Positions 27,424 through 27,645 of a stretch of 64,000 bases of DNA are shown in pieces. How positions within the stretch are numbered: position 1 is the stretch's first letter; the number at the start of each line of letters is the position of its first letter. Position numbers and translations under genes: made by a program. This stretch comes from Algoriphagus sp. (lineage in GTDB: Bacteria; Bacteroidota; Bacteroidia; Cytophagales; Cyclobacteriaceae). Location: positions 22,057-86,056 of the forward strand of contig NZ_JAMWZB010000014.1 in assembly GCF_024305035.1 (NCBI RefSeq). Direction: 5' to 3'. The notes below the pieces were generated by a model that ran no database searches, had not been told where the DNA came from, and saw nothing but the letters and a program-made list of their open reading frames with translations.

Positions 27424-27645
27424 ATTCTGATGGAGGGGGTTTAGGCTCCCTTTTATAAATGATGAAATACCCAAATCGAATAGTCGACACACAGGAGCAT
27501 GATTATCCAGGGTATTCCATCTGACCGCTGAAGAACAAATTATAATCAGATGAAATCGAGCATGACTAAAGCGACACACAACGGGATGATTAGAATTGCG
27601 AGATTCCATATGACCGCTGAAGAACAAATTATAATCAGATGAAAT
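27424..27645. repeat. Tandem array of palindromic 43-bp repeats, ~89-bp period (2 near-identical + 1 degenerate copy)
   Basis: ATTCCAT[C/A]TGACCGCTGAAGAACAAATTATAATCAGATGAAAT at 27514-27556 and 27603-27645 (1 mismatch); degenerate copy ATTCTGA...TTATAAATGATGAAAT at 27424-27468. Confidence 0.9.

Follow-up and report, generated by a model that had tools for sequence, protein, structure and literature searches.

What is the pair of near-identical repeats with inverted ends that lies beside queG in Algoriphagus sp. contig NZ_JAMWZB010000014.1? The repeats fall within the stretch analyzed here (64,000 nt, contig positions 22,057 to 86,056; hereafter the window), and an earlier interpretation made from the letters alone (the sequence-only reading) had taken them for an orphan array of 43-bp palindromic repeats with a period of about 89 bp. 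From copies throughout the genome, empty sites in a close relative and a fold kept across orders, we consider it likely that the array comprises two head-to-tail copies of a structured, non-autonomous mobile element with an 88-89 nt unit, which inserts at ATGAA(A) and leaves the start codon rebuilt. Positions are those of the window unless preceded by the handle of a contig of the assembly (C10, C8 and so on).

From two repeats to a dispersed family

The 43-nt copies occupy 27514-27556 and 27603-27645; as had been claimed, they are spaced by 89 nt and differ at a single base (C/A at 27521/27610), and the ends of each are inverted (ATTCCATCTGA / TCAGATGAAAT). No match of this kind occurred in 100 shuffles of the window, and the array went unreported by Tandem Repeats Finder. 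The segments between the 43-nt copies are themselves related (81% over 21 nt), so that the repeating unit is the whole 88-89 nt and not a 43-nt repeat plus a spacer. The array begins on the plus strand with the boundary ATGAAAT (27462-27468), of which ATGAA is the target copy and AAT pairs into helix P1 of unit 1. This first unit (27469-27556, plus strand) is of a "B" type with a variant 5′ half (ACCCAAATCGAATAGTCGACACAC...) that recurs at C9:106073 and C45:15618, and it ends in ATGAAAT at 27550-27556. Its P1 pairs AAATACCC (27465-27472) with GGGTATT (27510-27516), its P2 is the hairpin TCGA-ATAG-TCGA (27476-27487), and its P4 joins ATTCCATCTGA (27514-27524) to TCAGATGAAAT (27546-27556); folded as RNA or as DNA, the unit reaches a z of about -2 in each case, and its nhmmer match stands at C6:49537-49610 (model positions 12-86). 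The second unit (27557-27645, plus strand), of "A" type (CGAGCATGAC...TGCGAG-ATTCCATATGACC...CAGATGAAAT), likewise ends in ATGAAAT (27639-27645). It is recognized by a covariance model of the family (R1) at 93 bits (E 6e-16, 27550-27645) and by nhmmer at E 1.8e-20. Its P4 arms are 27603-27613 and 27635-27645, its fold is weak, and the A at 27610, the only base by which its 43-nt copy departs from that of unit 1, disrupts a covarying P4 pair. The third, degenerate copy that had been proposed at 27424-27468 dissolves on inspection: an IS200-like relic contributes most of it with its right end, and the ATGAAAT boundary comes after.

Nor is the array an orphan. A BLASTN count of copies, one of the checks that the sequence-only reading had proposed, gave 69 matches to 27400-27700 in the array's own genome, and an iterated nhmmer search raised the number to 154 units in 103 arrays, of which 73 hold a single unit, 15 two, 11 three, 3 four and 1 six. 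The units are direct repeats of 88-98 nt arranged head to tail, with array periods of 85-95 nt, and 27 of the copies are 91-100% identical to one 94-nt consensus. ATGAAAT exactly precedes 78 of 103 full units, every unit ends in ATGAA (..AAACAG-ATGAA), and within arrays the leading ATGAAAT and the closing ATGAA coincide at each junction. The terminal sequences, CGAGCATGAC on the left and ..TTATAAACAG on the right, do not form an inverted pair, and the flanking repeat is always ATGAA. The window itself holds a second member of the family, an older and more diverged copy on the minus strand (13084-13174), which R1 finds at 58 bits (E 5e-9, 13077-13174); its terminal ATG (13083-13081) starts a LOG-family gene, the protein of which matches PF03641 at E 1.4e-41.

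The family extends well beyond this genome. Within the genus, BLAST recovered it from 13 of 25 genomes (counting this one), and no match came from any of 16 other families of the order, whereas R1 detected it in 75 of 151 Cyclobacteriaceae genomes, representing 68 of 132 genera, with scores as high as in this genome, in 8 further genomes from other families of the order and, across a sample of the phylum, in 12 genomes of other orders or classes. Copy numbers in these relatives are lower bounds, as 10-27 candidates were scored per genome and many genomes reached that number. The copies from other families, orders and classes keep the arrangement ATGAAA(T)-P1-P2-...-TTCCAT-NN-GACC-A-rich loop-N′N′-ATGAAA, and several are fused to signal-peptide genes. 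The family is thus widespread in Cyclobacteriaceae, with sporadic relatives elsewhere in Bacteroidota.

Two further kinds of sequence accompany some units. A unit type starting ATGAAATATCCATGACGGGAGCGCGACACACAGGGGGATGATTAT trails certain arrays (C7:92016-92070, C16:86611-86647) and matches five contig ends of the Algoriphagus faecimaris assembly (G041 C12, C50, C38, C52, C3) at 98-100%, which indicates that these repeats break short-read assemblies. A GC-rich insertion of about 10-45 nt, containing CCCCGAT, sits in the middle of units at C5:103441-103573, C67:34681-34807 and C67:66391-66489 and in the A. faecimaris coaD copy (L100); in one copy it is palindromic (GCCCCGATATATCGGGG), and a second, very small element nested within the first is one possibility.

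Insertion sites, fold and start codons

How the units came to lie where they do is seen most directly by comparison with A. faecimaris DSM 23095, to which this genome is close and with which it shares, for instance, a SulP neighbour gene whose protein is 97% identical. For 41 arrays, the 100 nt on each side were fused and the joined flanks were searched in A. faecimaris; at no fewer than nine loci the match ran continuously over the junction, and the counterpart of the occupied site held a single ATGAA. Empty-site alleles, which the sequence-only reading had recommended looking for, therefore exist. The clean cases (C10:58895, C8:20184, C5:3824, an epimerase gene at C22:1100 and the two-unit array at C16:15890) read ..X-ATGAA-Y.. 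in A. faecimaris and ..X-ATGAA-AT[unit(s)]ACAG-ATGAA-Y.. here, and the SulP locus likewise has a single ATGAA in that species. In all, at least ten of the sites filled here have an empty counterpart in A. faecimaris. At C10:58895 the target is GATGAAGT, and in the occupied allele the upstream copy is ATGAAAT and the downstream copy ATGAAGT; this difference between the 5′ and 3′ copies implies that the element brings an ATGAA of its own and that the join falls within or adjoining the pentamer. The coaD locus is occupied in both species, by three units here and by one diverged unit in A. faecimaris. Together, the empty sites and the near-identity of many copies show insertion that was recent, precise and orientation-specific, and that left neither terminal inverted repeats nor a variable target duplication.

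Comparison of diverse units reveals three helices. In P1, the AAAT of the upstream ATGAAAT together with the next 4-6 nt pairs with the segment right before TTCCAT, and takes such forms as CGAGCA/TGCGAG, TGAGCA/TGCGAA, CCCGCA/TGCGGG, ACCC/GGGT, GCCC/GGGC and GACC/GGTC; variants of the kind ATGAAA|CGAGCA...GAG|TTCC have lost one base pair from both sides of the helix. P2 is a 5-bp hairpin near the 5′ end (TGACG/CGTCA, TGTCG/CGACA, TGACT/AGTCA, GTCGA/TCGAC). In P4, the pair within CCAT-N-TG / CA-N′-ATG varies jointly as C-G, G-C and A-T among relatives from eight congeneric genomes, and these joint changes indicate that the stem holding the rebuilt start codon is kept by compensation. Among 52 diverse units, 86.5% of alignment cells are paired, compared with 82.0±0.6% in shuffles (none of 500 reached the observed value) and 16-40% in slid registers; nine pairs have changed on both sides (4.8 in shuffles), in 43 cells (18 in shuffles). 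For 57 cross-taxon copies, whose alignment was fitted to the model and is to that extent biased toward structure, the corresponding figures are 92.2% paired versus 83.1% shuffled and 16-35% slid, with 12 of 18 pairs changed on both sides in 85 cells versus 25.9. P1, P2 and P4 are thus maintained by compensatory changes, and P4 contains the rebuilt ATG. A conserved internal motif, TTCCAT, is complementary to the target ATG(A/G)AA. The fold may matter in RNA or in single-stranded DNA.

The terminal ATG of the unit is often a genuine start codon. Of the 92 arrays that have an intact 3′ end, 50 have a terminal ATG opening 121-1209 codons; in the rest it opens at most 57, a cleanly bimodal distribution. 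Six of the gene products were scanned (LOG, NAD-dependent epimerase, CoaD-like cytidylyltransferase, IspD, type I phosphodiesterase and SulP); their functions are unrelated, and their Pfam domains begin between residues 3 and 46 (at residues 3-6 in five, at residue 28 in the phosphodiesterase), early enough to identify the terminal ATG as the real gene start. Much of this pattern follows from the target. The genome contains 18,072 ATGAA sites: 974 coincide with predicted gene starts (27% of genes), another 1,967 fall between genes and the others lie inside genes; if start and intergenic sites are the ones tolerated, 33-39% of arrays are expected at gene starts, compared with 54% observed, so that ATGAA(A) specificity and purifying selection explain most of the start-codon pattern and a modest excess remains. 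Non-fused arrays between co-directional genes show little orientation preference (15 sense, 8 antisense). The window array belongs to the lower mode of the distribution: its terminal ATG opens a short open reading frame (ORF) of only 26 codons (MKCERKTTTSTQ..., 27639-27719, plus strand), and the array is accordingly not fused to a gene. It is probably an ordinary and inert copy, an intergenic insertion at ATGAA beside the IS200-like relic.

Many units also contain an open frame. In 64 of 103 units the frame set by the upstream ATG runs open from end to end, compared with 0 and 3 for the other two frames, and it closes either with TAA 7 nt before the next ATG (25 of 103) or with a TGA that overlaps it as ATGA (32 of 103); unit lengths divisible by three are under-represented, at 16 of 100 here and 3 of 26 in congeners. 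The sequence-only reading had held that no ORF explains the array, 89 not being a multiple of 3, but a mini-ORF of 30 codons runs through unit 2 on the plus strand (27550-27642), its TGA (27640-27642) overlapping the ATG at 27639-27641. A length of 89, or 3n-1, is precisely what the ATGA stop/start overlap requires. The A-rich loop just 5′ of the ATG is conserved everywhere and resembles the Shine-Dalgarno-free initiation region used in Bacteroidota; from these features we infer that the element may carry a portable initiation region along with its start codon. The Bacteroidota -7 promoter motif TAnnTTTG, judged by eye, is not conserved in the unit.

A candidate mechanism and its rivals

The element integrates in one orientation at ATGAA(A), yielding X-ATGAA-AT[CGAGC....ACAG]-ATGAA-Y. 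A gene whose Met-Lys start is hit thereby receives an identical start codon at the 3′ end of the element, after the element's A-rich stretch. We posit that insertions at gene starts survive because translation is preserved, possibly through this portable A-rich initiation region. Arrays could grow because each copy recreates the ATGAAAT target, or by slippage. In the Algoriphagus subfamilies, the mini-ORF initiated at the old ATG, with a stop 7 nt before the new ATG or overlapping it (ATGA), might couple translation to the downstream gene, as has been proposed for the mini-ORF of mycobacterial interspersed repetitive units (MIRUs; PMC12548453). TTCCAT, through its complementarity to ATG(A/G)AA, may help to recognize both the target and the two ends, and movement would presumably need an enzyme acting in trans. 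It is possible, though we put it forward tentatively, that the family represents a new class of Bacteroidota mobile DNA in which TTCCAT pairing homes the element to Met-Lys starts and to its own ends, the responsible enzyme lies outside the transposase families tested and perhaps acts on coding-strand single-stranded DNA at transcribed 5′ ends, and the fold spares Shine-Dalgarno-free translation.

Several observations weigh against this account. The difference in occupancy rests on two species and could in principle include precise losses, and gene starts were taken from a simple longest-ORF caller. The covariation counts treat related copies as independent; RNAalifold returned no consensus structure for the 52 diverse units, whereas a separate run on 126 units did return one, which the pair counts support. 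Single-sequence folds are only marginally better than shuffles (z 0 to -2), and the commonest subfamily in this genome shows A·G, a mismatch, where P4 covaries (43 of 126 units). Searches for Y1_Tnp, TnpB and reverse transcriptase yielded no mobilizing enzyme, and no autonomous copy with the same ends was found. Finally, only 12 of 26 units from congeners have the mini-ORF frame open, and in distant relatives it stops after 2-4 codons (MK*, MKRA*), with few keeping it. The loss of the frame in relatives means that translational coupling is not the general way in which genes are spared, and coupling may help in some subfamilies; for the same reason, a peptide-coding function is rejected, since base pairs are kept where the frame is lost.

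What, then, would move the units? The sequence-only reading had offered a REPIN/BIME-like repeat, built on repetitive extragenic palindromes (REPs), or a hairpin substrate derived from IS200/IS605. Its general intuition was sound, in that the array is no neutral local duplication and belongs to a hairpin-bearing, dispersed kind of repeat, akin to REPs, bacterial interspersed mosaic elements (BIMEs) or MITEs (miniature inverted-repeat transposable elements), present at 103 loci, with an IS200-like relic adjoining; neither specific origin passed its tests, which came out negative or equivocal, REPIN/BIME failing on the head-to-tail arrangement and IS200/IS605 on unrelated ends and absent strand bias, and the ATGAA end and the start-codon position of the element had been missed. 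In an IS200/IS605-derived scheme, resembling that of palindrome-associated transposable elements (PATEs), a Y1 transposase of the HUH type would move single-stranded DNA 3′ of ATGAA, with TTCCAT guiding both cleavage sites. Insertion in one orientation beside a fixed pentamer, the lack of terminal inverted repeats and of variable target duplications, a right end that repeats the pentamer, hairpins close to either end and an internal stretch complementary to the target are all as such a scheme would have it, and the relic abuts the window array. Y1_Tnp is also common in the genus (58 of 61 genomes) and co-occurs with the element among the 151 family genomes (68/7/52/24, odds ratio 4.5, p = 0.001), a statistic that ignores phylogeny and genome size and is drawn from genomes of which 80% contain Y1. 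Yet about 154 units, many near-identical, coexist here with two broken Y1 copies and no intact Y1 transposase, and of three TnpB fragments two contain stop codons; in a congener (G021), at least 27 copies occur in a genome that gave no Y1 match. The resident IS200-like copies terminate in sequence unrelated to the unit, and a search of the 1.5 kb around 30 Y1 genes from the genus with the unit hidden Markov model (HMM) gave no match. Matches to the left and right halves of the model lying 30-6000 nt apart proved to be only units with small internal insertions or variant 5′ halves, so no long, gene-carrying copy stands between the unit's ends. Ton-Hoang et al. reportedly found in 2010 that IS200/IS605 copies show a replication-strand bias; the units show none, 48 of 89 arrays being on the G-rich strand, on which 54.8% of genes lie. 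We therefore regard an IS200/IS605 origin as unlikely. Maintenance by a REP-associated tyrosine transposase (RAYT), a domesticated Y1 transposase, as for REP, REPIN or BIME sequences, seems very improbable: the unit is indeed a short, palindromic, intergenic, high-copy repeat, and 153-aa RAYT-like Y1 genes with REP-like palindromes downstream do occur in other Algoriphagus genomes, but those palindromes (GCGTTCCGATGGAACGC and others) bear no relation to the unit, the unit HMM gives no match around those genes, no RAYT-like gene occurs in this genome, and units of 88-98 nt laid head to tail are not inverted doublets of 20-40 nt palindromes. A classical DDE-derived MITE is ruled out by ends that are not inverted and by a flanking repeat that is always ATGAA rather than variable.

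The conserved structure would also suit a cis-regulatory RNA, such as a thermometer or riboswitch-like leader, that spread because it was useful. P4 would hide the start codon, and ATTCC would switch between the upstream GAAAT (P1) and the downstream GAAAT (extended P4); structure conserved with covariation across orders, a start codon within a stem, the availability of this alternative pairing and the position of half of the copies immediately 5′ of genes are what one would expect. We nonetheless consider this explanation improbable, given that the genes behind the units have unrelated functions, sister species differ in occupancy, arrays reach six units, 42 of 92 arrays have no gene behind them and eight non-fused arrays are antisense to both neighbouring genes. 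Fold energies are moreover near those of shuffles, and cmscan of 25000-30000 against Rfam at E up to 10 found nothing at the array, with three chance-level matches elsewhere in the stretch. A still plainer origin, whether a neutral tandem duplication at one locus, a CRISPR-like or processed RNA array, or a set of small-peptide genes, is scarcely credible. The local tandem layout, the repeat-and-spacer appearance at a period of 89 and the mini-ORFs open in 64 of 103 units lend it some color; 103 loci in this genome and relatives across the phylum refute the single-locus version, which the sequence-only reading had named as the outcome that would overturn it, the "spacers" are conserved parts of the unit, and relatives keep the base pairs and not the peptide frame. 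A CRISPR array is excluded on the same ground, the "spacers" being 81% alike here and conserved genome-wide, although cas genes were not specifically searched.

Known relatives in lifestyle and the surroundings of the array

Full-text literature searches returned no description of the ATGAA-inserting family and brought up the MIRU analogy only. The closest known analogue would appear to be the mycobacterial MIRU: according to a 2025 review, MIRUs "insert themselves at start codons" with a coupled ORF at -4 (PMC12548453, which summarizes Supply et al. 1997). Both are short (40-100 bp) units without genes, set head to tail in arrays that differ in copy number from one relative to another; both share the orientation of neighbouring genes, are apparently mobile and are placed on start codons; in both, a small ORF within the unit may close with a stop codon overlapping the gene start at -4 spacing (ATGA), and neither has a known transposase. 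The likeness is one of lifestyle class and description rather than of sequence comparison, and homology is not expected, given the different phylum (Bacteroidota here, Actinomycetota there) and consensus. The ATGAA family further differs in its defined target pentamer, in a three-helix fold that covaries across orders with the start codon in a stem, in its target-complementary internal motif, in a coupled mini-ORF kept only in some subfamilies and in the A-rich initiation region carried along. On these sequence features, the lifestyle matches that of MIRUs, and the ATGAA(A) target, the covarying fold and the target-complementary motif seem to set the family apart.

Other systems share fewer traits. 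PATEs and IS608 likewise lack terminal inverted repeats, insert in one orientation beside a fixed short motif, form hairpins and contain internal sequence able to pair with the target and the element ends; in the ATGAA family, by contrast, no cognate Y1, no ends shared with the resident IS200-like copies and no replication-strand bias were found, the cleavage motif lies inside a stem and not beside a subterminal hairpin, and the target equals the right-end pentamer. REP/BIME/REPIN, ERIC, Correia (NEMIS), BOX and RUP repeats are similarly dispersed, structured, high-copy and intergenic, and are co-transcribed with their neighbours, with BOX and BIME also modular or arrayed. Correia and RUP have terminal inverted repeats and target duplications, and REPs are 20-40 nt palindromes tied to RAYTs; we know of none of these families that is defined by landing on and regenerating start codons. 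Finally, "putative mobile promoters" consist, like the copies described here, of near-identical sequence immediately upstream of unrelated genes within one genome; to judge by its abstract, that work on promoter reuse lists similar upstream regions and no defined element (PMC3575422), whereas the ATGAA family has a defined unit, target, empty sites and structure, and its shared part includes the start codon.

If the proposed mechanism is correct, a large lineage would have genomes in which hundreds of copies rewrite the region upstream of start codons while the genes survive. For annotation, dozens of genes per genome would have start codons and 5′ leaders derived from the element, with arrays breaking assemblies; for translation, the unit would amount to a natural, portable, Shine-Dalgarno-free initiation cassette in Bacteroidota, with its start codon in a stem. 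The number of units per array varies between species, as in MIRU-VNTR (variable-number tandem repeat) typing, and could serve to type strains. A defined target, a conserved fold and a target-complementary motif in a family with no known transposase would make the movement of MIRU-type repeats directly testable.

Immediately upstream of the array lies the IS200-like relic (27338-27461, plus strand), which retains the final codons of tnpA (..ASPATIRQYILLQA*, with the stop at 27399-27401) and the hairpin region of the right end. By blastn it matches C45:157338-157459 at 75% across 122 nt and the Y1_Tnp locus on C34 at 75% across 55 nt; it also resembles C56:83487-83537, and its similarity to the genome's two Y1_Tnp loci is weaker. 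A Pfam scan of the translated relic gave no Y1_Tnp match, and its assignment is accordingly one of DNA similarity. It is not a member of the ATGAA repeat family. The genome's only two Y1_Tnp (PF01797) matches are both degenerate, at C34:79629-79994 (with a TGA) and C3:55795-56004 (partial). The TnpB (PF07282) fragments lie at C29:20048-20251, C67:96313-96486 and C1:207397-207525, none of them beside arrays, and reverse-transcriptase (PF00078) matches occur at two contig ends, C1:99-593 and C13:42-191, again away from arrays, a placement that fits a multi-copy group II intron or a similar retroelement. Reverse transcriptase is thus present in the genome, and nothing supports an RNA route of movement. 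In other genomes of the genus, the 153-aa RAYT-like Y1 genes are followed by GC-rich palindromes such as GCGTTCCGATGGAACGC (loci L109, L111, L112, L122, L131, L132); this looks like a separate REP/RAYT system of the genus, absent from the genome of the window.

The left neighbour of the array, queG (epoxyqueuosine reductase, 26138-27079, minus strand; PF08331 QueG_DUF1730 at 4e-23 and Fer4_16 at 8e-24), diverges from it. A scan of the window for tRNA and tmRNA genes found none. Downstream, a 9-nt tandem repeat (ATCAAAACC, 3.8 copies, 27825-27858) lies within an unannotated minus-strand ORF (27746-27976, 76 aa, no Pfam match), and a pair of 24-nt direct repeats, 165 nt apart, occupies 27662-27685 and 27827-27850, the first outside that ORF and the second overlapping the ATCAAAACC tandem repeat.

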